Assembly (NCBI GenBank): GCA_945883805.1 | Contig: CAMCYE010000004.1 | Span: 9,917 to 73,916, forward strand | Source of the DNA: Victivallis vadensis | GTDB taxonomy: Bacteria > Verrucomicrobiota > Lentisphaeria > Victivallales > GWF2-50-93 | Direction: 5' to 3' | DNA: 64,000 nucleotides | Shown: positions 13,993 to 49,079 of the stretch, in pieces | Layout of the letters: each line of letters starts with the position of its first letter | Position numbering within the stretch: position 1 is the first letter of the stretch | Notes under the pieces: generated by a model | The model's input: only the letters and a program-made list of their open reading frames with translations | Told to the model about the DNA's origin: nothing | The model's database searches: none | Translations under genes and position numbers: made by a program

Positions 13993-15714
13993 ATGAGTAT
14001 GCGGAATTCGCAAAAAAACATAACGTTCTTGGAAGTCAATTCATCGTATTCACACACGATGCTTTCGTATGGATATCTCCGTGCATACACCGAAAAAATG
14101 CTGTCCGGATGGAACTGGAACCACATCGAGACAACCACCAATGAGGACGGAGATGCCGCCCTCCTGAAAACATTGTCCGTCAGACCGGACGTAGTCTGCG
14201 CCACGTTATACCTTTTCAACCACGAATATACTGTAAAAATCCTCAAGAAACTGAAAAGGCTTCTGCCAGACTGCATGATTTTCCTAGGCGGTCCGGAATT
14301 CCTCGGCAACAATGAGGAATTCCTGCGAAAGAATCCGGAAGTGAGCGCCACAATACGCGGAGATGAAAGCAGTTTCCATTCCCTGCTGGCAAATCTGGAC
14401 AAAAAAGACAAATGGAAAAAGATCCCCGGTGTGTGCTTTGTCCGTAACGGCAGATATTCCGATGCCGGTTTTGCGAAATTCGCAGGCAGTCTTGATGAAA
14501 CCCCCTCACCATATGAAAAAGGACATTACACATCGGGCAGACCTTTCTACCAGATAGAAACTTCCCGCGGCTGCGGAGGGAAATGCAGTTTCTGCACCAG
14601 CGCACTGTCAGACGGCATCGCCTGTTTCAGCATTTCCAGAATAAGAAATGAACTTGAAATCCTGAGCAAGGCTGGCATCCGCGAAATCCGCATTGTTGAC
14701 CGGACTTTCAACGAAGACAAAAAACGCTCGACGGATCTCCTGAAAATATTCAGGCAGTATCCTGAAATAAGGTTTCACCTTGAAATAAATCCGGCACTTG
14801 TCGATCAGGAGATACTGGATGAGCTAAACCTGTTCACGGCGAAACGACTCCATATCGAGACAGGAATACAGACCCTTTGCGAAAAGAGCCTCAAATCGGT
14901 CAAGAGATTCGGCTCTGCCGAAAAAATGCTTTCCGGACTTAAAAAGCTCCGCCACTTGGAAAACGCCGAACTTCACGTCGACCTGATCTCCGGACTGCCG
15001 GAACAGAAATTCAGCGATGTCCTGAACGATGTGAAAAAGCTTATCAAGGTCAACCCCCATGAAATCCAGCTCGAGACCCTCAAGATCCTTCCCGGAACGT
15101 CAATCTCGGTCAATCCGCCGCCTGGGAATGTTTCAAACCCCCTGCCCCCGTATGAAATCCTTGAGACAAGGACAATGACGGCAGGCCAGCTCCAGACGGC
15201 AAAACATCTTTCCAAAATGCTCGATTCATATTTAAACATCCCCAGATTGAAGAACTTATTCAGGTTCGCATTCATCCGGGACAAATCATTCATTGAAAAG
15301 TTTCTCCGGCATCTTGAGACAAATTCGGATCCGATGCAGAAACATCATCTCGACAGAAGACTTCTGATGTTGAAAGACTACGCCGACAAAAATGACACAC
15401 TTCTTGCTGAATCCGTAATTTTCTTCTGGTTATCAGGAGGATTTCCTCCTGATAAATGTATCACGGGCATCCTGCCTGTGACGACAAGAAAAATAAAAAA
15501 TATCCGAAAAGATGAGCCACCGGACGGGAAGAACATTTTCACATCCGCTGAAAATATTTCCCCGTCAAAAATAATTGAAATCGAATTCAGTTTCAACGCC
15601 GCTGATTTATGGCTGGATCCGGAGGCGAAATTGATGAAAGGCAAATTCAAATATCTTTTTTACACAGCACAAGGCAGCAGAGTCATGAGGATTCAGAGTC
15701 ATCCCGAAGGATGA
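13993..15714 (+). CDS. B12-binding radical SAM protein (DUF4080-type)
   Basis: Cobalamin-binding-like N-terminus (LGGPEF), ETSRGCGGKCSFC, VDRTFN, HVDLISGLP. Confidence 0.85.
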   Translation: MSMRNSQKNITFLEVNSSYSHTMLSYGYLRAYTEKMLSGWNWNHIETTTNEDGDAALLKTLSVRPDVVCATLYLFNHEYTVKILKKLKRLLPDCMIFLGGPEFLGNNEEFLRKNPEVSATIRGDESSFHSLLANLDKKDKWKKIPGVCFVRNGRYSDAGFAKFAGSLDETPSPYEKGHYTSGRPFYQIETSRGCGGKCSFCTSALSDGIACFSISRIRNELEILSKAGIREIRIVDRTFNEDKKRSTDLLKIFRQYPEIRFHLEINPALVDQEILDELNLFTAKRLHIETGIQTLCEKSLKSVKRFGSAEKMLSGLKKLRHLENAELHVDLISGLPEQKFSDVLNDVKKLIKVNPHEIQLETLKILPGTSISVNPPPGNVSNPLPPYEILETRTMTAGQLQTAKHLSKMLDSYLNIPRLKNLFRFAFIRDKSFIEKFLRHLETNSDPMQKHHLDRRLLMLKDYADKNDTLLAESVIFFWLSGGFPPDKCITGILPVTTRKIKNIRKDEPPDGKNIFTSAENISPSKIIEIEFSFNAADLWLDPEAKLMKGKFKYLFYTAQGSRVMRIQSHPEG

Positions 15715-18372: not shown

Positions 18373-18712
18373 TGTAGCACAGGCCCTGGATTTGCTTGGC
18401 GGAAGTATTTCCGCACATTTTTAAGCCAAGTCGTTCTTAGATCCCGAGTCACATCATGAGCTCGGGGCAGACTCTTGGCGTTCCCGGGAACGCTGACCGT
18501 CTGGTCGGCTCCATGTATTTCTTGTGCGGAAGGACTTCCGCCGAAAGTATCTGGTCGCCGTAGGCGCTGCCATACGCTTGTACGCCTCAGGCGTGCAGGT
18601 AAACATTCTTGCCTGTATCTTCATTTCCAGATGTGATGTTGAGAATACGCTAGGGCGCACAAGTCACAGACACGAAAAACAGAAACTACAGATAGGAATG
18701 TCTGTGTTACTT
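18373..18712. mobile_element. Multiply nested non-autonomous elements: REPIN > 36-bp element > MITE > hairpin
   Basis: Each layer resolved by comparison with simpler copies elsewhere in the window (see findings). Confidence 0.75.
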
Positions 18713-24434: not shown

Positions 24435-26162
24435 TTGGAATTGATAATAAGCAACCTGCGGATACCCGTTGAGAAGGACGGGATTGACGAATATGTGAAA
24501 GCCGCTTCACAAAAGCTGGAATTTGGCGCGGAAACCATAAAATTCTCCCGGATGCTCAGCAAGTCGCTCGACATGTCCGACAAAGATCAGTTCTTCTATG
24601 ATGTCTCAGTAGTTGTCACTGTCCCGGACAATTTCGACAACAGGCAAGACTTCCCTGCATATAATGCATGTAATTGCAAAACACAAGAAACGGTCGCGAC
24701 AAGCCCTGGTCGCCTTTGGAGCCGCCATATGCGGGTAAACACAACCCTCCATAATGCCGGAACAGATAAAAGTGGAGGGCGAGGCTTGTCCGAGCCGCAG
24801 TTATCTATTCACCCCTTAGAAAAAACTGAAAAACCGGCAAACATCAAGGAACGCCCCATAATCGTGGGGTTCGGTCCCGCCGGGATGTTTGCCGCACTAG
24901 AACTTTTGAATTATGGAATTAGGCCAATAATCTTCGAACGCGGTAAAAAGATAGAGGAGCGCGACATTGATGTTCAAAAGTTCGTCCGGGAAAGGGAGCT
25001 GGACCCGGAGTCGAACATCCAATTCGGCGAAGGCGGCGCTGGGTCATACTCGGACGGAAAACTGTTTTCAAGAATCAGGAATAATTCCGGACACGTGAAC
25101 AGGGTGCTCGACACTCTGATAAAGTTCGGCGCGCCGGAAGAAATAGGTTACATCAGCAAACCGCATCTCGGCACAGACGTGCTGTGCAGGATAGTCCGCA
25201 ACATACGGAATCACGTCCTTGAGAGAGGCGGCGAAATACATTACAATTCAAAACTCACCGACATCATCTCATCTGACGGGAAAATCCGGGGAGTGGTGGT
25301 GAACGGTGAAAAGGAATACCTTTCTTCAACAGTCTATCTTGCGGTCGGGCATTCTGCGCGCGACACGTTTGAGATTCTCCACGGCAAAGGCGTCGCCATT
25401 GAGCAGAAGCCGATTTCCGTAGGCGTCAGGGTTGAGCATCCTGCTGAAATCATCAATCTCATAAGGTACGGCTACAAATACAAGGACTTCCGCGGCATAG
25501 GGGCGGCCACGTATTCCTTCAACCATACCGACCGGAAAACAGGAAGGGGAGCATACACGTTCTGCATGTGCCCCGGTGGCGAGGTGGTGAACGCCTCATC
25601 TGAAAAGGGCATGCTGGTTCTAAACGGCATGAGCTACTCCCGCAGGGCTTCGCCATTCTCGAATTCGGCGATTGCAGTGACCTGCCGGACGGATGATTAT
25701 AAGACCGCAAGCCCGCTGGCGGGAATTGAATTCCAAAAGGATATGGAGCGAAGGGCGTTCAACGCAACAGGGGGAACTTGGAGGGCTCCAGCACAGAATC
25801 TGATGGATTTCCTGAACCGAAAAAACTCCCTCGAGCTAAATGAAAACTCCTACAAGATGGGCGTCGCATCCGTCAACATGAATGAAATCCTGCCCGGATT
25901 CGTGTGCGAATCTCTCGCGACCGCATTCAACAAATGGAAAGAGGATTATCCTCTCTTTGTTTCAGAACATGCCATTTTGCTCGGCGTTGAAACAAGGACT
26001 TCCTCCCCGGTAAAAATCATGCGCAATGAAAAATATGAATCCGTGAACATGGGGAACCTGTATCCGATAGGCGAAGGTTCCGGCTATACCGGCGGTATAA
26101 CAAGTTCGGCTGCGGATGCCATAAAGGCAGTGGAACTCAGCGCTTTATCCCATTTGCAGTAG
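24435..26162 (+). CDS. FAD-dependent oxidoreductase with an in-frame repeat insertion
   Basis: VGFGPAG, QFGEGGAGSYSDGKL, FCMCPGG, ETRTSSP, GEGSGYTGGITSSAADA; insert at ~24668-24800. Confidence 0.88.
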   Translation: MELIISNLRIPVEKDGIDEYVKAASQKLEFGAETIKFSRMLSKSLDMSDKDQFFYDVSVVVTVPDNFDNRQDFPAYNACNCKTQETVATSPGRLWSRHMRVNTTLHNAGTDKSGGRGLSEPQLSIHPLEKTEKPANIKERPIIVGFGPAGMFAALELLNYGIRPIIFERGKKIEERDIDVQKFVRERELDPESNIQFGEGGAGSYSDGKLFSRIRNNSGHVNRVLDTLIKFGAPEEIGYISKPHLGTDVLCRIVRNIRNHVLERGGEIHYNSKLTDIISSDGKIRGVVVNGEKEYLSSTVYLAVGHSARDTFEILHGKGVAIEQKPISVGVRVEHPAEIINLIRYGYKYKDFRGIGAATYSFNHTDRKTGRGAYTFCMCPGGEVVNASSEKGMLVLNGMSYSRRASPFSNSAIAVTCRTDDYKTASPLAGIEFQKDMERRAFNATGGTWRAPAQNLMDFLNRKNSLELNENSYKMGVASVNMNEILPGFVCESLATAFNKWKEDYPLFVSEHAILLGVETRTSSPVKIMRNEKYESVNMGNLYPIGEGSGYTGGITSSAADAIKAVELSALSHLQ

Positions 26163-33192: not shown

Positions 33193-34281
33193 ATGAAATA
33201 CATTGATGGATTCAGAAATTCCGAAACCGCAGTCGCCATCAGCAGGCAGATCAAAGAGATTGCCTCCAAAATAGACCGTCAGATGACAATTATGGAAGTC
33301 TGCGGAACCCACACCATGTCCATTGCGAAATTCGCAATCCGGAGCCTCCTCCCGGAAAACATCCGGCTGGTCAGCGGTCCGGGATGTCCGGTCTGCGTGA
33401 CTCCGCAGGGATATATTGACGCCGCCATCGAACTCGCCGAATGCGGAAAGGTCATTGTGACCTTCGGGGACATGATCAATGTTCCAGGCACATCTTCCAG
33501 CCTTTCCAGGTCGCGTTCATCCGGAACCCACGTTGAAACATGTTATTCCCCGGCGGACGCAGTTGAAATGGCAAATAAATACCTAGATCGGCAGGTTGTC
33601 TTCCTCGCCGTCGGATTCGAGACCACGATCGGACCGGTCGTCAGCATTGTCGATTCCGCACTAAGGGAGAAAATAGAAAACCTGAGCATCTTCACGACAT
33701 TCAAGCAGATTCCGCCCGCAATGGAGGCGCTCTCATCCGACAGCGAGCTCAACATCGATGCGTTCCTGTGCCCTGCCCATGTGAGCGCAATCATAGGCGA
33801 AAAGGCATACGAGCCCTTTTCCGCAAAATACAGGAAGCCGTGCGTGATTGCCGGCTTCGAACCGCTTGACATCCTTTCAGGGATAAAGATGATAGCGGCC
33901 CAGATTTCAAACGGCGAAGCCAAGGTTGAAAACAACTATTCCAGAGTTGTCAAATACGACGGGAACCCCAAGGCGCGTGAATTCATAAACACATATCTCG
34001 AACCTGCGGACGCCCAGTGGCGCGGCATCGGAAATATTCCGGGAAGCGGACTGTCTCTCAGGAAAAAATTCGAAAAATTTGATTCGGAGAAAAAATTCGG
34101 GATGAAGGTCGATTACAAAATAAATTCCAGCAAGTGCCGGTGCGGAGATGTCTTAAAAGGGAAGATATCCCCGACAGAATGTCCTCTTTTCGCAAAAGTC
34201 TGCACACCCTCCAATCCGTCTGGGCCATGCATGGTAAGCAGTGAAGGCACATGTTCCGCCTGCTATAAGTATTCCAGATAA
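33193..34281 (+). CDS. hypD: [NiFe]-hydrogenase maturation protein HypD
   Basis: MEVCGTHT, GPGCPVC, GFETT, CMVSSEGTC. Confidence 0.96.
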   Translation: MKYIDGFRNSETAVAISRQIKEIASKIDRQMTIMEVCGTHTMSIAKFAIRSLLPENIRLVSGPGCPVCVTPQGYIDAAIELAECGKVIVTFGDMINVPGTSSSLSRSRSSGTHVETCYSPADAVEMANKYLDRQVVFLAVGFETTIGPVVSIVDSALREKIENLSIFTTFKQIPPAMEALSSDSELNIDAFLCPAHVSAIIGEKAYEPFSAKYRKPCVIAGFEPLDILSGIKMIAAQISNGEAKVENNYSRVVKYDGNPKAREFINTYLEPADAQWRGIGNIPGSGLSLRKKFEKFDSEKKFGMKVDYKINSSKCRCGDVLKGKISPTECPLFAKVCTPSNPSGPCMVSSEGTCSACYKYSR

Positions 34282-41171: not shown

Positions 41172-41798
41172 TCAGGAAATCATCGAGCGCTGAAGACCGA
41201 TTACCCTGCCTTGAATTGCGACATCGCCCGGTTCGTAAACCTGGGTCTTAAAATTAGTATTCGCAGGCCTGAGTTCAATCTTACCTTCATTCGGGAAATA
41301 ACTTTTGACCGTAGTGTCGTCACCGGTGAGCGCAACCACAATATCCCCGGGGTTCACCATGGAAGTCTGCTTGACAATGATACAGTCCCCGTCGAGAATG
41401 CCCAGATCTTTCATGCTGTCGCCGTTGATCCTGAGGGCGAACAGCTTGCTTGTGTCCTCCCCTTTGAACATTGAAGAATCACAGTAGACTTCGCCCTCCT
41501 TCATTTCAGGGGAGTTAAGGGGAAGCCCGGCACTTATCCTGCCCAGGAGAGGTATGGAAAGAACAAATGATGTGTGGTGCGAGTGCTTGTTCTTCCCGAA
41601 AAGCGAGATGCTTCTCGCCTTTGAACTCCGCGTCAGGAAACCCTTATTCTGAAGCGATCTCAGATGCGCGAAAACGGTTGATGTCTTAATCCTGAAATAA
41701 TCGGCAAGCTCATAAACCGTGGGAGCCATACCCTCCGTGTTGGAGAATTTCTCGATGTAATTGAGCATACGCCGCTGTTTGTCTGTCAAACCTATCAT
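41172..41798 (-). CDS. lexA: SOS repressor LexA
   Basis: LTDKQ..PTVYEL HTH, LLGRISAG cleavage site, GDSM, TVK. Confidence 0.93.
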   Translation of the reverse strand: MIGLTDKQRRMLNYIEKFSNTEGMAPTVYELADYFRIKTSTVFAHLRSLQNKGFLTRSSKARSISLFGKNKHSHHTSFVLSIPLLGRISAGLPLNSPEMKEGEVYCDSSMFKGEDTSKLFALRINGDSMKDLGILDGDCIIVKQTSMVNPGDIVVALTGDDTTVKSYFPNEGKIELRPANTNFKTQVYEPGDVAIQGRVIGLQRSMIS

Positions 41799-42066: not shown

Positions 42067-42084
42067 ACTTCCCCAAAATACCAT

Positions 42085-42197
42085 GAGCCAATTTCAAAAC
42101 TACGGCTCGGACAAGCCTCGCCCTCCATTATTACGACCGTTTCGGGAGTGGAGGGTTTTGCTTGTCAAAACCGTTTCTTGAGTTTTGAAATTACCTC
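42085..42197. mobile_element. MITE-like shell carrying a GGAG-type REP pair; intergenic homolog of the insert at 24668-24800
   Basis: GAGCCAATTTCAAAACT...AGTTTTGAAATTACCTC enclosing CGGCTCGGACAAGCCTCGCCCTCCA. Confidence 0.75.
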
Positions 42198-42381
42198 CCA
42201 TGAATAAACCAGCCACTGTTTTTTCACTGACAAGAATTAAATCCCGGCTCCTTCTCAGATCGAGTGGGTAGAAAGACTGAATATCCAATATTCAATTATT
42301 TTCATATTTTGTGTGTTTACCCACTCAAAATGAAAACGAACCGCAATTCATTGCGCGTTCTTGAAGCAAGTTGGCTCTTTT

Positions 42382-42452: not shown

Positions 42453-45400
42453 TCATCCGACTGAAACAACTTTTCCTATTCTCACAAAGGCGAGGTTCAG
42501 TCTTATCTTTTCCGCAGGCAGTTTTATCAGCAGTGACAATGCGTTCTGATAAAGTTTCAACTGGTTCGAGTGGGTCAGGACGGCTTGAACTAACTCTTCA
42601 TCCGAATTTATGCTGTCCGTCTTATAATCGAGGATTGCGGCTTCCGTAATTTCTCCGGAATCGTTTTCAATCAGTGTCACACGATCAAATTCTCCGCGTA
42701 TCAAAGTGCCGTCAATGATAAGCTCAAATCTTTTTTCACGCCATAATCCGGCGGAGGATGAAGGTTTTTCCAGCGAACTTCGCAACTCAGGATGTTTCAG
42801 TGATTTCAGGAATATGTCTTTTGCTACGGAGATTATCTTGTCCGGATAGGCGGCATTTTCCTCCCATTCGCCACAGATGGCTTCCGGTTTGACCGAATTA
42901 AACCATTCAATCTTTTCAAAAAGCTCATGCACCGCACTCCCTATCTTCGCGGCGGTGTCGCACACGTTTCCGAAAAGGGTTCCGGCAAATATCGTCCCCT
43001 CCTCGGCTCCGGAAGGCGTCACGGTTTTTAAGACATCATCAAAATCCAGCGATAATTCAATTTTATTTTCGCCACCCTCTTCCACGGGTTTCTCCCTGTC
43101 GTAACTCTCATACCATGCCGGATTCCCATTTTCGTAAAGCAGCTTCACTCCGTCCCCAGTCTCATTGTCCTCCCGCTCGGCAAGAGCTTTCAAAAGCACG
43201 TCTTCCAGATATAACGTGTCCGACTTCGTCTTTGGCGGAGGATCCGTTATCATGTATAGCGCCTCGGCGGCGCGCGTCATCGCCACATAGAGGACGCACA
43301 GATATTCATAGCAGGTGTCATCGTCAAGATCCGCCACAAGTCCGCTCAAGACGGGATCCAGCTCGGAAATCCTGCGGTTCGGCATGAACATCAGCCACTC
43401 CACCGACAGATCCCCGCCTTGCTTCGCCCTTATACCCTGTATGTCGGCACTCGTGATTCCCCTGGTCTTTATTTCCGCCAGGAAAACAATGTCGAATTCA
43501 AGACCTTTCGCCTTGTAGACGGTCATGATCTGAACCGCATCGTCAACGGTTTCACCGGGTATCGTGTAATTGTTTATGTAATCAATGAAATCCAGACAGT
43601 TCTTCTCCCCGCCCCTGTCGAAAATCTGGGCGGCTGCTATGAACTGGTCGAGCCGTCTGGCACTGAATTCGTCAAACCTACAAACTGAATGCTTTCCCTC
43701 TTCATTTGGAACAGCTCTTACGAGCTTGACTACCAACGGATTCAACTCAAATTCATTGTTCTTGTTTGTAGTTAACCCCGTAAGGGGTGTTTCCCTATGA
43801 CTTTTCGCACAGATTCCAGCAAGGCGCCGACTCCATTTCTGTATGAAATATGCAAAACCGTTCCGGTAAATATCATCGAGCACCTCTTCGGAAGTTTCAG
43901 CCTGCGATTTCAGCAGTGTGGCAAACGGAGTCATGCGCAGATGCTGCCACGCAAAACTGTCCGCAGGATGTTCTGCGAACTTCGCAAGCGAGAGGAATGC
44001 CGTCACCAGCGGATTGTCCGTCAGATGGAACTGCCCTTCAATCGCGACTTTCAATCCTTCCGCCTGCAGCAGTTCGGCTATTTCACGTCCGGTATCGTTC
44101 TTTGAAACTAGAACCGCGACAGAAAGCTTGCGCTCAAACGGGGCAATCTCTTTTATCTTGTCGGCGATGATTTTAACTTTCCGTTCAATGGAAATTTCCT
44201 TCTGCTCCCGTCCGTCACCTGCCTTCTGAAGCTGGAGAAGGGATGCATAGCCTCCGAATGCGGGACTGCCATCCTTGTTTTTCTCCTTCGCTTCATGCTC
44301 CTCCCAGTCCCAGCGCGCCCGCACAGACAGGGGCAGTTCCTCAATGCCGTTCAGGTTGGAGAAAACTTCGTTAACAGTTCCAATCACCTCCCGGCTTGAC
44401 CGGAATGATCTGCTGAGGCGTTTCAATTCTATTTCCGTATACTCTTTGTACTCCTCGTATATTGATTTGAAAAGGCTCGCCTCGCCTTCGCGCCAGCCGT
44501 AAATAGCCTGTTTCACATCGCCCACATAGAAAAAGCTCCGGTTGCCAGAATCGTCCTGGACAATCTCGTCAATCAGGTTTTTTATAATCCTCCACTGCGG
44601 AAAACTGGTGTCCTGGAACTCATCTATCAGCCAGTGGTCAAACCTGGAATCAAGACGGTAGTCAATATAGAGCCTGTCCTCCGGCCCGGAAGAATTTTCA
44701 CTCAGCACATAATGGTTCTCATCCATACCCGCGTTGGGGGAAAGTATGAACGGTATGTCCGCAAATGTCAGTTTACCGCCCTGCCGGATCATCTGATTGT
44801 AGAGTTCCTCGTAACGCCGGATAAGGCCGTAAACGCCTTTCGTCTTGTGGAGCTGGGCGCTTACCTGGCATTTCATGATGTGCCGTGCCAGCTTGAGAAG
44901 ACATGCGCACTCGTCACCTGAAAAATCGATTGGAACCCTGCTCCCGACAGTCAGCTGCGCCCCGCCCTCCTCAAGTTCAGGCAGGATCTTGAAAAGATTC
45001 TTATTGAACGCCGAATCAAAATCAAAATACGATTCCGGCATGAAAGTCCTGGCGATCCCTATGAATTCGTCGAACTTCTCCCTCTGCTTCTCGGAAAGTT
45101 TCTTCGATTCCAGGAGGGTTGTCAGCCTGTCCGACTCCTCGGCAGGATTTATTTTGCAGCTCAAGATTTCCGAACCGTCGGGCCAGATCACATCGGACTT
45201 ACCCCACTTGTCCGGATCCGGAGCGCAGAGATATCTATAATGGTATTCTTTGACAAACCCGTCAAGGATTTCAGTCAGCCTCTTCTCCTCCTTCCCGAAA
45301 GTCGCCTTCTTGAACTCCTCCACAAATTCGCTCCTGACAGCCTTGTCCGCATACTCAGTATTCCAGAGTATGTTCCTGAAAACCTTCCGTTTCGCCTGCT

Positions 45401-45827
45401 CCACAAGCGACTCATCGATGATTTCAAAATCTCCGGAGAGTCCGAACTCAAACGAGAACGTCTTTATTATCCTGACAAAAAAACTGTCCAAGGTACCGAT
45501 CGGGAGAAGGTGCAGGCTGAGCAGAAGTCTGCGGAGTATTTTCTGAAGTTCCTCCTCCGACATCTGCGGGATTCCGGATTCGAGATATTCCGGAGTTTTC
45601 ATCATCGCCGGATTCTTGATCATTGAAGATATCCGGCTGATTATCCTGTCAAAGATTTCACCGGCGGCATTACGCGTGAAAGTCATGGCGACAATAGTCT
45701 CCGGCTTGACACCGGCAGCAAGAAGTTTGAGGTAACGGTTGACGAGCTGATAGGTCTTGCCCGTCCCCGCAGAAGCCGAGATCACCTCGTTCTTGATTTT
45801 AACCGCCATGTTTCTCTTCGCGTTCAT
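42453..45827 (-). CDS. addA: UvrD-type helicase/nuclease AddA with one in-frame REP insertion
   Basis: ASAGTGKT, TFTRNAA, IDEFQD, VGDVKQAIYGWR, KAKGLEF, YVAMTRA, C-terminal DRV..DYKT nuclease. Confidence 0.9.
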   Translation of the reverse strand: MNAKRNMAVKIKNEVISASAGTGKTYQLVNRYLKLLAAGVKPETIVAMTFTRNAAGEIFDRIISRISSMIKNPAMMKTPEYLESGIPQMSEEELQKILRRLLLSLHLLPIGTLDSFFVRIIKTFSFEFGLSGDFEIIDESLVEQAKRKVFRNILWNTEYADKAVRSEFVEEFKKATFGKEEKRLTEILDGFVKEYHYRYLCAPDPDKWGKSDVIWPDGSEILSCKINPAEESDRLTTLLESKKLSEKQREKFDEFIGIARTFMPESYFDFDSAFNKNLFKILPELEEGGAQLTVGSRVPIDFSGDECACLLKLARHIMKCQVSAQLHKTKGVYGLIRRYEELYNQMIRQGGKLTFADIPFILSPNAGMDENHYVLSENSSGPEDRLYIDYRLDSRFDHWLIDEFQDTSFPQWRIIKNLIDEIVQDDSGNRSFFYVGDVKQAIYGWREGEASLFKSIYEEYKEYTEIELKRLSRSFRSSREVIGTVNEVFSNLNGIEELPLSVRARWDWEEHEAKEKNKDGSPAFGGYASLLQLQKAGDGREQKEISIERKVKIIADKIKEIAPFERKLSVAVLVSKNDTGREIAELLQAEGLKVAIEGQFHLTDNPLVTAFLSLAKFAEHPADSFAWQHLRMTPFATLLKSQAETSEEVLDDIYRNGFAYFIQKWSRRLAGICAKSHRETPLTGLTTNKNNEFELNPLVVKLVRAVPNEEGKHSVCRFDEFSARRLDQFIAAAQIFDRGGEKNCLDFIDYINNYTIPGETVDDAVQIMTVYKAKGLEFDIVFLAEIKTRGITSADIQGIRAKQGGDLSVEWLMFMPNRRISELDPVLSGLVADLDDDTCYEYLCVLYVAMTRAAEALYMITDPPPKTKSDTLYLEDVLLKALAEREDNETGDGVKLLYENGNPAWYESYDREKPVEEGGENKIELSLDFDDVLKTVTPSGAEEGTIFAGTLFGNVCDTAAKIGSAVHELFEKIEWFNSVKPEAICGEWEENAAYPDKIISVAKDIFLKSLKHPELRSSLEKPSSSAGLWREKRFELIIDGTLIRGEFDRVTLIENDSGEITEAAILDYKTDSINSDEELVQAVLTHSNQLKLYQNALSLLIKLPAEKIRLNLAFVRIGKVVSVG

Positions 45828-45956: not shown

Positions 45957-48900
45957 TTAATTAATCTCGTCGACTGAATCAATCGGACTGCCGAAAAACA
46001 AACCCTCGAAATCGTCGTATCTGATCTTTTCCGACGGAGGCCAGAAAATTCCATTGCGGATGCTTTCAATTACATCCACGGCGCATTTTTCAGCGTCTTT
46101 CAGATATGTTTCCCCCATGCCGTCCCAGATTTCAATTCCAGTATCCGTCACCGCCTTTGGAAGATTGAAGTATCCGCAAATGATCCTGCAACCTTTGAAA
46201 TTCCCCTCCTTTTCGAGAAGCAACTGGTACAACGGCAACTGCAAATCAACCCAGCATTTCAGCTTCCCACCCTTATCGAAAAGTGCATATTGCAGGTAGG
46301 GCGATTTCTCCGAAAGCGCCGCAGTAGCCTTGCCAAGGGAGGCCTCCTCCGCATCAGAACGGACGGCTCGGAGATCCGTCCCTACCTTGAATTGATCGTT
46401 TCTCGCATACTTCACATGGGTGTTTTCCGGAGACTCCGCCTTGTCGCTTGTCTTGTAATCTAGAATCCTGATTGTTCCGTCGATGTGCCTGTCAATCCTG
46501 TCAATCTTCCCCTTGATAGTCATTCCGCCAAGATTGACCCCTTTTCCGTCCCCGAGCTTGTATTCCGTATGCAGTATCTCCCAGCCTTCGCAATTCTGCA
46601 CAGCTTGGACTTCTGCGAATTTCGCAAGCCTCTGTTTCACGCTCTCAAGCTGGATCAGAAGGGACAGCGGCAGATTTTTCCCGAACTGCGCTTTGAGAAG
46701 CCGCTCCGACTCCACGTGCAGGAACACTTTTATTTCCTCGGAGTTGCGGCTTTTCCTCAGTTTCTCATCCTGACAGAAATTGTCCAGCGCACGATGGCAC
46801 ACGTTTCCGAAATCCATCTGGTCCATCTCAGTCTTCCTGTCGTCAACCTCCTCCATCTTCAATACCTTCTTCAGGTAGAAACGGAACGGACAGTTCAGAT
46901 AATTCTTGAAATCGGTGACAGACAGGACTTCCGGTATTTTCTCTTTTTGAGGTTTCAGTTTCCAGAGGAGTGTTCGGGCAAGCGGCTTCTGCTTCTTGTC
47001 TGTAGGAGTTCCAAACAGTTTATCAACCCTCGCAACAAGCACCTCCGGCGGACAGAGGAAAAACAAGCGTGAAGGCTTCAACGGATCCCCAGAAACATCC
47101 GTCTTACCTGCAATGCAGAAAAGCTTCCCGTTCTTCCTTGATTCGATAATGGAAGTCATGAGATAAATATCACGGGCGAAACGCCGCCTATTGCTCTTCA
47201 ACCCGAGTTTTTCCCTCGGCAGATCCGGCAGGAAAACATCACCTACAACTGAATCAGGAACATATCCCTCATTCATTCCGGCGATGACAAGAGTGTCCGC
47301 GCTTTCCCATTGCAGTTCAAGCCAGCCCTGCAACGCCAAGGCGTCCGCATCATGCTGGGGATAAATCGTCCCCTTCTTCAGGAGTGAAATGAAAAGCCTC
47401 AGTTTATCGCTGGCGCCAAGATTGAACGAATCAGCCGCAGATTCCTCCAGTTCCGAAATCATGTCGCTAACAAGTTCCGCAGAGCTGATAAACATCTGAC
47501 GGTCTTCGTCAGAATCTTTGATTTCCCGTGTCCGGTATATGTCTGAAAGAAATCCGCGCATGAATTCCGTGAAAGGTGTTTCCTTGAACCGCCGGATCAG
47601 CGCGACAACCGTGTTAACCGCAATCTTCAATTCATTTTTTTCGCTACGAAAAAAATCATCAAGTTTTTCGGGAAGATGTTCGTTCTGGTATTTGTCCAGT
47701 TCCTTCAGAAGATTCAACGGAATAAAATCCTTATTTTCAGAAGCGAGATATTTCAAAAAATCGGGATTGCGTATGAATGCGGCAAACGATTCGTAATTCT
47801 CCTTTTCTGCGAGATCCGCAAAAGTCATGATCAGGTTGAAAACAGGAGTCGTGGCGACAGATTCCCCTCCGGGATTGTAGGTTTTAACTCCGACATCCGA
47901 AAAAGCCTTTTCGACGTATGGGAAAATATTCTCGTTAAGCACGGAAACCGCAACATCTCGCGGGGATAAAGTCTTTTTCTGCTCATGTAGGATTCTTATT
48001 ATCTCATCCGCCTGAGCCTCCGGATTGCCCGCAAGCCGAATGCGATCTTCGCACTGCTCATAACGTGTCTTTTCTTCAACGGAGTGCGGGTTTTCTAACC
48101 CGCGAACTGCATTTTTCACCTCTTCAACGGAGCGCGAGTTTTCCCTGTCCTTCTCCGACTTACTCGAGTAGACTGATTCGCGAATTGGCGGGTTAGAAAA
48201 CCCGCCCTCCGTTATTTTAGAGCTCCCCCCGAATACGACTTCCGCATTCTCCCATTTCTCAGGAATCGGACGCCCCCACTCATCAAATTTCCCGCTCATG
48301 TCTTCAGGCGCGTAAACCCAAACCTCTACATTCTTTAAGCCAAGCCGACGCTTGGCGTTCCCGGGAACGCTGACCGTCTGGTCGGCTCTGTAAATTTTCT
48401 GAATGGAACTTCCACACAACAAATCCAGCTTCTTAATCGCCAGCGGCATCGGATCGCAGACACCTATCAAAATAATCCTGTCATACTTCTCAATCTCGCC
48501 TGACAAAGGTTCCGACTCAATCTCTGCGATATTCGCATCCTTTATGCCGAGTTTTCCCAGTTTCCTCAAATACGCCGACTCCAGATCCGCCAGCGCCTTC
48601 CATCTTTCAATTTCCTGAAGTCCCGCTTCCAATCCCAGCTTCGGCATGTCTTCGATTATGAATCCATTTTCCGCCAAAAGATTGCGAAGTTCGCAGAACT
48701 TCCCGGCAAGCCCCATCGCCCATCGCGCATCTTTCCTTTTCGATATCTTGAGTGCTGACAGCTTTTCCTGTCTGCATCCCGACAGAACATCAATCCAAGC
48801 GGCGATCATTTCAAAATCGGAGGCGACTTTTATTTTCGGATCTCGATTCTTTAGGAAAAAGTCAGGAGTGACGAGCCGTGGCGGGAAAATTCCGGAGTTC

Positions 48901-49079
48901 CGTTCAGCCGCATATTTTACGAGCGATTCTCCGAGCCGTCTCCCGGACTGACGTGTAGGTGTGACAAGCAGGAATCTGCTCAAATCAGGCACACCCTCCG
49001 TCCATCCAGACAGTAGCCTCTCCGTGGCAAGCGTCACCAGAGGTTCATCCCATCCAAGAAAATTTAGTTGCAAAGGCAT
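45957..49079 (-). CDS. addB: AddB-like PD-(D/E)XK nuclease subunit with three in-frame REP insertions
   Basis: PTRQSGRRL, GMNEG, LSVTDFKNYLNCPFRFY, GKIDRID, ILDYKT, LQLPLY; directly upstream of addA. Confidence 0.85.
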   Translation of the reverse strand: MPLQLNFLGWDEPLVTLATERLLSGWTEGVPDLSRFLLVTPTRQSGRRLGESLVKYAAERNSGIFPPRLVTPDFFLKNRDPKIKVASDFEMIAAWIDVLSGCRQEKLSALKISKRKDARWAMGLAGKFCELRNLLAENGFIIEDMPKLGLEAGLQEIERWKALADLESAYLRKLGKLGIKDANIAEIESEPLSGEIEKYDRIILIGVCDPMPLAIKKLDLLCGSSIQKIYRADQTVSVPGNAKRRLGLKNVEVWVYAPEDMSGKFDEWGRPIPEKWENAEVVFGGSSKITEGGFSNPPIRESVYSSKSEKDRENSRSVEEVKNAVRGLENPHSVEEKTRYEQCEDRIRLAGNPEAQADEIIRILHEQKKTLSPRDVAVSVLNENIFPYVEKAFSDVGVKTYNPGGESVATTPVFNLIMTFADLAEKENYESFAAFIRNPDFLKYLASENKDFIPLNLLKELDKYQNEHLPEKLDDFFRSEKNELKIAVNTVVALIRRFKETPFTEFMRGFLSDIYRTREIKDSDEDRQMFISSAELVSDMISELEESAADSFNLGASDKLRLFISLLKKGTIYPQHDADALALQGWLELQWESADTLVIAGMNEGYVPDSVVGDVFLPDLPREKLGLKSNRRRFARDIYLMTSIIESRKNGKLFCIAGKTDVSGDPLKPSRLFFLCPPEVLVARVDKLFGTPTDKKQKPLARTLLWKLKPQKEKIPEVLSVTDFKNYLNCPFRFYLKKVLKMEEVDDRKTEMDQMDFGNVCHRALDNFCQDEKLRKSRNSEEIKVFLHVESERLLKAQFGKNLPLSLLIQLESVKQRLAKFAEVQAVQNCEGWEILHTEYKLGDGKGVNLGGMTIKGKIDRIDRHIDGTIRILDYKTSDKAESPENTHVKYARNDQFKVGTDLRAVRSDAEEASLGKATAALSEKSPYLQYALFDKGGKLKCWVDLQLPLYQLLLEKEGNFKGCRIICGYFNLPKAVTDTGIEIWDGMGETYLKDAEKCAVDVIESIRNGIFWPPSEKIRYDDFEGLFFGSPIDSVDEIN

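Follow-up and report, generated by a model that had tools for sequence, protein, structure and literature searches.

In-frame palindromic repeats of different families in the addAB break-repair genes of a Victivallis vadensis genome

The stretch of DNA analysed here (the window) comprises 64,000 nt of Victivallis vadensis (assembly GCA_945883805.1, contig CAMCYE010000004.1, positions 9,917 to 73,916 of the forward strand), and the subject is the addAB break-repair operon on its minus strand. The addB coding sequence (45957..49079, 1040 aa by the open reading frame (ORF) call) carries three in-frame inserts, here called (a), (b) and (c), and addA, which lies directly downstream (42453..45827, minus strand, 1124 aa), carries a fourth element, the AddA insert. 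All three AddB inserts are genuine insertions relative to orthologues. We consider it very probable that they are small non-autonomous palindromic mobile repeats which landed in frame, and that AddB still works with their translation products as flexible loops on its surface.

The source genome, G000, is a metagenome assembly of 3.48 Mb in 192 contigs with 47.9% G+C. Other G codes denote related genomes, C codes contigs of G000, X codes independent runs, and P codes representatives of the AddB family.

Results

The AddB inserts are real insertions

AddB was compared with orthologues from 11 relatives and with 150 family representatives. Three stretches of the G000 protein, aa 219-248 (c), 286-342 (b) and 894-931 (a), proved to be in-frame additions. 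In a search of 31 related genomes, 16 of which matched, the AddB match broke at aa 220/248, 287/317-343 and 894/929, and protein and codon alignments (12 and 6 orthologues) revealed three blocks in the G000 protein that were missing from most relatives. The 1040 aa of G000 AddB compare with 1014, 1004 and 970 aa in the closest species G007, G002 and G009, and with 926, 924 and 913 aa in G001, G004 and G013. A family alignment was built from G000 AddB (P0001) and 107 of the 150 representatives, leaving out 43 that included all of 976 aa or more. Its columns filled in fewer than 10% of the other sequences were 225-248, 283-327 (with short stretches to 346), 889-902 and 908-920. Measured from anchor to anchor against these 107 representatives, the segment with (c) had 47 residues in G000 versus a median of 23 (range 20-27), that with (b) 79 versus 22 (range 20-24), and that with (a) 54 versus 22 (range 5-33). 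When the 43 omitted representatives were added back, an insert at site c was found in none of the 150, and three of the 150 had 20-residue blocks near aa 339 at site b, apparently a misaligned conserved RIRLAGNPEAQA stretch. P0041 had inserts near aa 470 and 960 and P0067 had one near aa 27; the other extras among the representatives were terminal.

The lengths of the three inserts are multiples of three, and none contains a stop codon. Folded as single-stranded DNA (ssDNA) and compared with 200 shuffles, the inserts gave z = -2.8 (a), -5.6 (b) and -2.4, with 1, 0 and 4 shuffles folding as well. All four elements, the AddA insert included, out-folded their shuffles (z = -2.4 to -5.6), and two control segments of addB gave z = -0.7 and -1.1. 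An earlier reading of the window (the sequence-only reading) had proposed three in-frame AddB inserts from three different repeat families, and it was right: each is an indel relative to orthologues and each recurs elsewhere in the genome. Its positions and sequences were also as we found them, with GGTAGGG...CCCTACC at 46293-46388 and the arms of (b) within 48078-48213.

Insert (a) is a GTAG-headed REP doublet with a candidate transposase

Insert (a) (46288..46401, minus strand) is a doublet of GTAG-headed repetitive extragenic palindromes (REPs), resembling a REPIN (a REP doublet forming a hairpin). It lies in the loop after the DYK motif, beginning 18 residues past the D874-Y-K876 nuclease motif, and is an indel relative to all relatives. 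Its outer bounds GGTAGGG...CCCTACC span 46293-46388, and the block replaced relative to the empty allele spans 46288-46401, that is, 114 nt replacing 24 nt, a net gain of 30 codons. The insert opens with AGGTAGGG and closes with CCCTACCT, which places an unpaired GTAG at the outer end, and the hairpins GACGG..CCGTC and GGCG..CGCC lie inside the GGTAGGG/CCCTACC pair as an inverted doublet. A nested palindromic extra of about 30 nt (46319..46348, minus strand) is not in the canonical 70-nt copy (C102:6611-6680), its edges being ambiguous by a 4-nt GCGG repeat. On the two strands together, the genome has 122 copies of the head AGGT[AG]GGG. The core AAGGTAGGG...CCCTACCT was found at 16 loci and is mainly extragenic (11 intergenic, 1 at an ORF edge, 4 within ORFs); the intra-ORF copies are in AddB, a GHMP kinase, an RHS protein and a 171-aa ORF. 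Many copies of family a sit inside a longer shell with inverted ends of its own, and in several the loops house further hairpins.

Twelve Y1_Tnp matches were found in G000, of which 10 scored over the curated Pfam cut-off. The match on C45 scored 28.2 bits (cut-off 23) and has an HIH motif. Seven AGGTAGGG heads were found within 700 bp of this gene, on both sides of it, and none near the other 11 matches. Because AGGTAGGG-headed units flank the C45 gene on both sides, the arrangement is that of a REP-associated tyrosine transposase (RAYT), and the gene is a candidate cognate RAYT of family a (IS200/IS605-like, HUH/Y1). The GTAG head, the doublet arrangement and this candidate all bear out the proposal that (a) is a REP pair. 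The Y1_Tnp matches were located on C40, C48, C25, C23, C19, C13, C14, C90, C45, C9 (two matches) and C96, unusually many for RAYT-like genes; eight of the 12 have repeats on both sides, and only the C45 gene is tied to a family seen in addB.

We also noticed an 8-nt likeness between the empty (a) site and the flank of the canonical copy. It was dropped, as the filled allele lacks it and the odds of a chance match are about 0.03.

Inserts (b), (c) and the AddA insert come from three other families

Insert (b) (48051..48221, minus strand) is a 171-nt foldback of 57 codons at the boundary of the first and second helicase-like domains. By sequence and fold, its two 26-nt arms, at 48078..48103 and 48188..48213, are inverted copies of one hairpin unit, AACGGAG-GCGGGTTTTCTAACCCGC, which was found at six further loci on six contigs (C1, C16, C49, C80, C133 and C145). 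As DNA the insert folds at -37 kcal/mol. The pair previously placed at 48078-48213 therefore has its inverted arms there, and the whole insert is wider.

Insert (c) (48328..48428, minus strand; aa about 219-248) is a truncated MITE (miniature inverted-repeat transposable element), a net gain of 24 codons relative to G009. It consists of a degenerate left terminal repeat and a 62-nt double-hairpin core (48328-48389). Family c is small, non-coding and dispersed, with 65 loci on many contigs; canonical copies measure about 130 bp, have terminal inverted repeats of about 31 bp and contain no coding gene. Many copies start and end with CTAG, and further hairpins often sit in the loops of the intergenic ones. 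The AddB copy does not have the full pair of terminal inverted repeats: its right one is gone and its left one degenerate, which makes it a shortened derivative of the MITE, no longer intact. Positions 48351-48388 are identical to intergenic 18474-18511 of the window (C4 28390-28427) at 38 of 38 nt, exactly as had been read from the sequence. The location assigned to (c) at that time agrees with the repeat similarity at 48328-48389; the insert itself extends to 48428, and it is a truncated MITE, not a REP.

The AddA insert (43677..43820, minus strand, aa 670-717) belongs to a fourth repeat family. Its repeat-similar part (43708-43807) has 8-10 partners, all intergenic.

The repeat families of this genome are modular. 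Small hairpins (e.g. CCCCGAGCTCATGATGGGACTCGGG) are nested in the loops of bigger elements (C12:8641-8781, C130:1597-1667, C17:23634-23703), and one set of outer inverted ends (TGAGSYAATTTCAAAA...) encloses differing cores, for example at 42084-42197 of the window.

The addAB genes hold more inserts than expected from their length

A genome-wide test was performed on ORFs called by a greedy longest-ORF rule (120 aa or more, n = 2553, covering 84% of the genome). Repeats were defined by self-BLAST matches of 44 bits or more, as positions with at least 3 partners elsewhere, and elements longer than 400 bp were dropped. This bit-score-filtered search replaced a 14-mer count and a first self-BLAST (E of 1e-4), which had missed (b) entirely and (a) nearly. 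It gave 1139 repeat elements of 400 bp or less, 980 of them intergenic, 60 at ORF edges and 99 inside ORFs, although ORFs make up most of the genome; the families of the AddB inserts are overwhelmingly intergenic too. Keeping coding inserts whose partners are at least half intergenic left 54, and 33 ORFs with a length of at least 250 aa hold 39 of them.

AddB carries three of these inserts, tied for the most with an RHS-repeat protein, and AddA carries one. In 20,000 length-weighted permutations with a margin of 10 aa from the ORF ends, AddB held 3 of 39 inserts with 0.049 expected, and the probability that any gene reaches 3 was 0.005. Since many other hits fall in the first 60 or so codons and may lie upstream of the true start, margins of 60 and 100 aa were also applied. 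AddB then held 3 of 23 inserts (0.034 expected, P = 0.002) and 3 of 16 (0.028 expected, P = 0.0007), and AddA kept its insert at both margins. The probability that any adjacent pair of genes reaches 4 was 0.0003-0.0005 at the 10-aa margin and 0.00005 or less at 60 and 100 aa. Although the locus was picked for looking enriched, this choice is accounted for, because the permutation asks about the genome-wide maximum. Only 6 of the 80 ORFs of 900 aa or more carry any insert. The excess in addAB thus survives a genome-wide, length-normalised permutation, and addAB holds more inserts than its length would predict.

In several other hosts, domains lie on either side of the insert; among these are a HemN-like enzyme, a HemC-fusion protein, a CheR, a GHMP kinase, a hybrid histidine kinase, CheB-CheR-PAS and a radical-SAM/SPASM protein. 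DNA-metabolism genes beyond addAB were not over-represented, DnaG and UvdE being only N-terminal, doubtful cases. Our own count of coding inserts in the window, six, equals the earlier one, and four of the six are in addAB (three in AddB, one in AddA). The other two are in a FAD-dependent protein (24435-26162, plus strand; in-frame repeat 24670-24802, aa 79-123) and in the radical-SAM/SPASM gene adjoining addB (49856-50839, plus strand; in-frame repeat 50369-50488, aa 171-208, between its two domains). The hydrogenase and ech-type genes, said earlier to have no inserts, had none in the repeat scan.

AddB is a conserved, divergent AddB-like protein and its inserts are predicted loops

AddB has an inactive helicase-like N-terminal part and a PD-(D/E)XK nuclease domain (Pfam PDDEXK_1, PF12705, E = 1.8e-25), and profiles showed a UvrD-type helicase and a nuclease domain in AddA. 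The best NCBIfam models were addB_alphas and addA_alphas, both far under their equivalog cut-offs: AddB scored 94.5 bits against addB_alphas (cut-off 486.5) and 30.3 bits against addB_Gpos (cut-off 903.7). Searched by sequence against solved structures, AddB matched none with E up to 0.01. The AlphaFold model, for which 108 sequences were used, had a mean pLDDT of 89.9 and a pTM of 0.87, and with this model Foldseek ranked B. subtilis AddB chains 1 to 5 (E about 1e-25, TM 0.58-0.60), followed by AdnA and RecC. Because the domains and the predicted fold match AddB while the NCBIfam scores are far under cut-off, this is a divergent AddAB whose AddB belongs to a divergent AddB-like family. This family has 6617 relatives at E of 0.001 or less, and its 150 best representatives are mostly 920-975 aa long.

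The nuclease residues D860, D874, K876, Q947 and Y951 were invariant in 108 AddB family sequences. The dN/dS of addB was 0.09-0.12 in every pair of species over 921 ungapped codons, with dS of 0.6-0.7 among four close species. These results showed that addB is not decaying: it is under strong purifying selection and its catalytic motifs are intact. Within the inserts dN/dS was 0.28-1.14, measured on 26-56 codons. In the AlphaFold model, the stretches with pLDDT below 50 were 227-233 and 239-242 (c), 292-316 and 327-329 (b), and 894-901 and 905-910 (a). Since every such stretch falls within an insert, the insert segments are best read as disordered loops on an intact predicted fold, which is consistent with the earlier idea of tolerant loops.

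The remark that this AddB lacks the three C-terminal Fe-S cysteines of Bacillus AddB is borne out by a motif search and the family alignment. No CxxCx5C motif was found in AddB after the nuclease motifs, and the family alignment agrees. The Fe-S staple, with one Cys before and three after the nuclease motifs, is described in many, not all, AddB (PMC2887965). In the 108 family sequences C730 (in CPFRFY), the equivalent of the first staple Cys, is the only invariant Cys, and C676 and C999 are conserved at 90% or more; C999 is the only conserved Cys after the nuclease motifs family-wide, so that a four-cysteine staple is missing. Judged from this alignment, the absence of the triad is a trait of the whole family, not tied to the inserts.

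Insert content differs between sister species and between strains

Four close species, G000, G007, G009 and G002, are about equally distant from each other. Insert (c) is common to G000, G007 and G002 with the same degenerate left junction and is tandemly duplicated in G002; it is missing in G009, which has uninterrupted sequence, and in all other relatives. Insert (b) is missing in G002, G001, G004, G005 and more distant relatives. At site b, a short segment is common to G007 and G009, and the additions there differ: two b hairpins in G000, one in G009 (a shorter version) and, by peptide similarity, an element of the AddA-insert family in G007; G002 has nothing at this site. Insert (a) was found in G000 only among the compared species. 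A further site, near aa 470, is occupied by one hairpin repeat in G009 and by another, different one in G002. The family of the G002 repeat has 34, 44, 14 and 6 matches in G002, G007, G000 and G009, respectively; the G009 repeat has 2 matches in G009, the copy in addB being one of the two, and a single match in G007. Of the species compared, G000 and G009 have the AddA insert, and it is missing from G002 and G001. Because this pattern is incongruent with that of (c) in the adjacent gene, it suggests recombination among roughly equidistant lineages, allele exchange or lineage sorting within the operon.

To look at strain level, contigs from four runs of four studies were matched to the locus at 90% likeness; no contig spans the whole gene, and 46007-46327 is uncovered in X12. 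All four runs had contigs that include insert (b) together with its two junctions (0-10 other letters), and junctions of (c) were present on contigs of X1, X3 and X5. A single contig in each of X1, X3 and X5, with sides of 60-255 nt and about 98% likeness to the window, connects 46287 with 46402 through 24 letters of different sequence. These letters encode an EDGGLAK-like loop resembling the sister species, and the contigs carry the empty allele of (a). Since near-identical contigs of three runs have the empty site, insert (a) is a recent, strain-specific polymorphism, and its presence or absence at strain level suggests recent mobility. Junctions skipping (b) were found in X1 (175 nt, side 30) and X12 (171 nt, exactly 48051-48221, side 42) at the same 90% likeness; a b-less allele is possible, and these joints may instead stem from a sister species.

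An iterated palindrome and neighbouring sequence

A 13-nt palindrome, TGCGAANTTCGCA, has 231 exact copies in the genome (66 per Mb) versus 0.2 expected from base composition, and 726 copies at one mismatch or fewer, with 1-10 for control palindromes. Of the exact copies 91% are inside ORFs, and all four central bases are equally used. The window has 17 matches versus 0.36 in shuffles; examples are at 699-711, 14472-14484, 33324-33336, 43974-43986, 46614-46626 and 48683-48695. TGCGAANTTCGCA looks like a highly iterated palindrome or an uptake-signal-like word. Four copies are in addB versus 0.71 expected (P = 0.006), which is not significant after correction over 2553 ORFs, six of which have 4 or more. 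It was rejected as an insertion target, as it adjoins site b only.

Downstream of addA lies lexA (LexA DNA-binding and Peptidase_S24 domains, 41172-41798, minus strand), with a repeat-filled gap at 42077-42350 between the two genes.

Discussion

How the inserts may have arisen

We favour the explanation that mobile palindromic repeats landed in frame and persist as translated loops. Insert (a) would have been placed by a RAYT through a single-strand mechanism, and only those insertions that kept the frame and fell in permissive loops would have survived selection. The excess in addAB would be a mix of unusual tolerance and of repeats attracting further repeats by nesting; the tolerance may come from AddB being large and scaffold-like, with an N-terminal helicase fold in which an ATP-binding motif is not evident. 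The disordered loops, and the strong constraint outside the inserts with relaxed constraint inside them, speak for tolerance.

Several observations weigh against this explanation. No transposase for family b, c or the AddA family could be tied to the repeats near the 12 Y1_Tnp matches; a Y2_Tnp (IS91-type) profile search gave no match, but its control matched in 0 of 14 genomes, so the search was uninformative. Neither a target-site duplication nor a clean insertion junction was definable at sites a, b and c: at site a the bases adjoining the replaced block differ from the empty allele, and at site c some 19 nt of native sequence have been lost along with the right terminal repeat. None of the four runs showed (a) in its filled form, for which the G000 assembly is the only witness. 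The ORFs of the enrichment test are crude longest-ORF calls, and low-copy families are under-detected. Sites c and b lie in segments of near-constant length family-wide, and for that reason are not obviously 'variable loops'. Finally, the core of (c) is 51/54 identical to G002, versus 85% for the gene overall, and its first 30 nt are 30/30 identical to G007, a level that just 2.3% of 30-nt windows reach with that species. Greater conservation between species in this core than in the gene is not what one expects of a passenger that is purely neutral. Gene conversion with other copies, or hairpin constraint, could account for it. The core of (c) thus exceeds the 83-85% overall identity of the surrounding gene between species, yet it encodes a predicted disordered loop.

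A mutational hotspot is the strongest competitor, possible in our view and somewhat less likely than not to be the whole answer. It holds that the addAB locus or its sites are hit more often, through nesting at hairpins, local hopping or single-strandedness, so that the excess reflects input rate. Site b, with its shared segment and different additions in three species, points this way, as do the fourth site near aa 470, filled differently in G009 and G002 and also used in P0041, and the intergenic copies of families a and c, whose loops often contain other, nested hairpins. The repeat in the adjoining radical-SAM/SPASM gene brings the in-frame repeats to five within 8.4 kb, and the lack of length variation at sites c and b in the family also fits. 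However, the AddB sites are 60-650 codons apart and hold unrelated families, presumably moved by different transposases, and one target preference therefore cannot cover all of them. The neighbouring lexA, hydrogenase and ech-type genes are without inserts, and no shared target motif was found, TGCGAANTTCGCA being next to one site only. The sequence-only reading had offered 'tolerant loops or a hotspot'; both fit, with the AlphaFold loops on one side and the stacked, different repeats of sister species on the other. The two are not mutually exclusive.

We think it unlikely that the inserts are kept because they alter AddAB, whether in end binding, Chi scanning or nuclease action. Such an effect might be hyper-recombination or a mutator effect benefiting the host, or a milder AddAB that spares the hairpin or single-strand intermediates of the repeats. 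The effect on the processing of hairpin DNA raised in the sequence-only reading is likewise speculative. In favour, the enrichment in addAB is strong; three species retain (c), whose core is better conserved than the gene; the inactive helicase-like part houses (c) and (b), whereas (a) is next to the active site of the nuclease; and intragenic REPs in recBCD, uvrABCD, polA and dnaE2 across phyla are thought unlikely to be fortuitous by the authors who described them (PMC3733652). Yet the insert peptides are predicted to be disordered and evolve under relaxed constraint, the content of one site differs between sister species, the inserts are polymorphic within a population, and the conserved core of (c) is equally explained by gene conversion with about 65 other copies. 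A related and equally improbable view takes the pile-up of repeats, in an enzyme that acts on broken and hairpin-capped DNA ends, as the mark of a lasting conflict or bargain in which selfish hairpin repeats face the machinery for processing breaks, rather than an accident of tolerance. If this were true, loops in the Chi-scanning part and near the nuclease site would tune AddAB in favour of the intermediates of the repeats or of recombination between their copies, and it would explain REP-type repeats in recBCD, addAB and uvr genes across distant phyla.

An assembly artefact at repeats, or a pseudogene gathering junk, has next to no likelihood: the source is a 192-contig metagenome assembly and the filled (a) allele is seen only there, but relatives assembled independently have (c), (b) and the AddA insert at matching sites, (b) is on contigs of four other runs and the (c) junctions on those of three, the sequences at the junctions of (a) occur at this locus only, no insert disrupts the frame, and decay is contradicted by omega of about 0.1 and invariant catalytic residues, contrary to what a decaying addAB would show.

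Selfish repeats in frame illustrate a route by which mobile DNA without coding function enters proteins. The published preference of such repeats for repair genes has never been explained, and this locus is a compact natural test case of insertion bias versus structural tolerance versus selection on repair activity, with three unrelated families in one gene, four sister species, a segregating empty allele, a candidate transposase and a confident model. It also carries a warning for annotation: where a repair protein of an uncultured bacterium is an outlier in length, the extra sequence may be loops derived from repeats instead of new domains.

Comparison with known systems

The closest published parallel is the survey by Di Nocera, De Gregorio and Rocco (2013), which describes intragenic GTAG/CGTC REPs and 'REP-decorated proteins' (PMC3733652). 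These families are mostly intergenic, with in-frame singles or dimers encoding 20-30 or more residues; many are in genes for replication and repair, recBCD among them, some genes have two such hits, and two Xanthomonas species have different REPs at about the same recB site (PMC3733652). The survey links GTAG REPs to RAYT genes, gives the GTAG head, two hairpins and the doublet form as their marks, reports the most intragenic GTAG copies in Opitutus terrae (PVC group), and speculates on mutator effects (PMC3733652). The repeats at our locus are likewise short palindromes, mostly intergenic, in frame in a break-repair gene and with different fillings at the same site. The host here is the addAB of a Victivallales metagenome-assembled genome, and three unrelated families occur in one gene, only one of them a GTAG REP. 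What we add to the survey is a genome-wide test normalised for length, a structural model, dN/dS values and an empty allele at population level. The locus extends the phenomenon to AddAB of the Lentisphaerae group; no report of such repeats in Victivallales or Lentisphaerae was among the matches listed in a limited literature search, which is not proof of absence in print.

Rickettsia palindromic elements (RPEs; Ogata et al. 2000/2002) are about 100-150 bp long and in frame in many unrelated genes; they are translated and judged compatible with protein fold and function (PMC10969869), and nearly half were reported to be in ORFs. RPEs are described as having a CGTC tag and no dedicated transposase (PMC3733652). 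The AddB inserts resemble them in behaviour only, and differ in that coding copies are a small minority here (99 of 1139 elements in ORFs).

REPINs are described as extragenic (Bertels & Rainey 2011, PMC3116915). Insert (a), like a REPIN-RAYT system, consists of two inverted REP hairpins forming a larger hairpin, and its family flanks a single Y1 transposase gene. In contrast to what is described for such systems, G000 has 10 Y1_Tnp matches over the cut-off, not one or few, and the AddB copy is intragenic.

Bacterial MITEs giving in-frame fusions include ERIC, BOX and Anabaena MITEs (PMC10969869). Family c is like these, with terminal inverted repeats of about 31 bp, a length of about 130 bp and about 65 copies, and its AddB copy is a translational fusion; it differs from them in that this copy has no right terminal repeat and a degenerate left one, and that neither a target-site duplication nor, among the Y1 and Y2 families covered, a parent insertion sequence was identified. 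Taken against these systems, the addAB locus is not a new kind of system; it is an unusually dense and well-documented case of in-frame REP/MITE inserts in repair genes.

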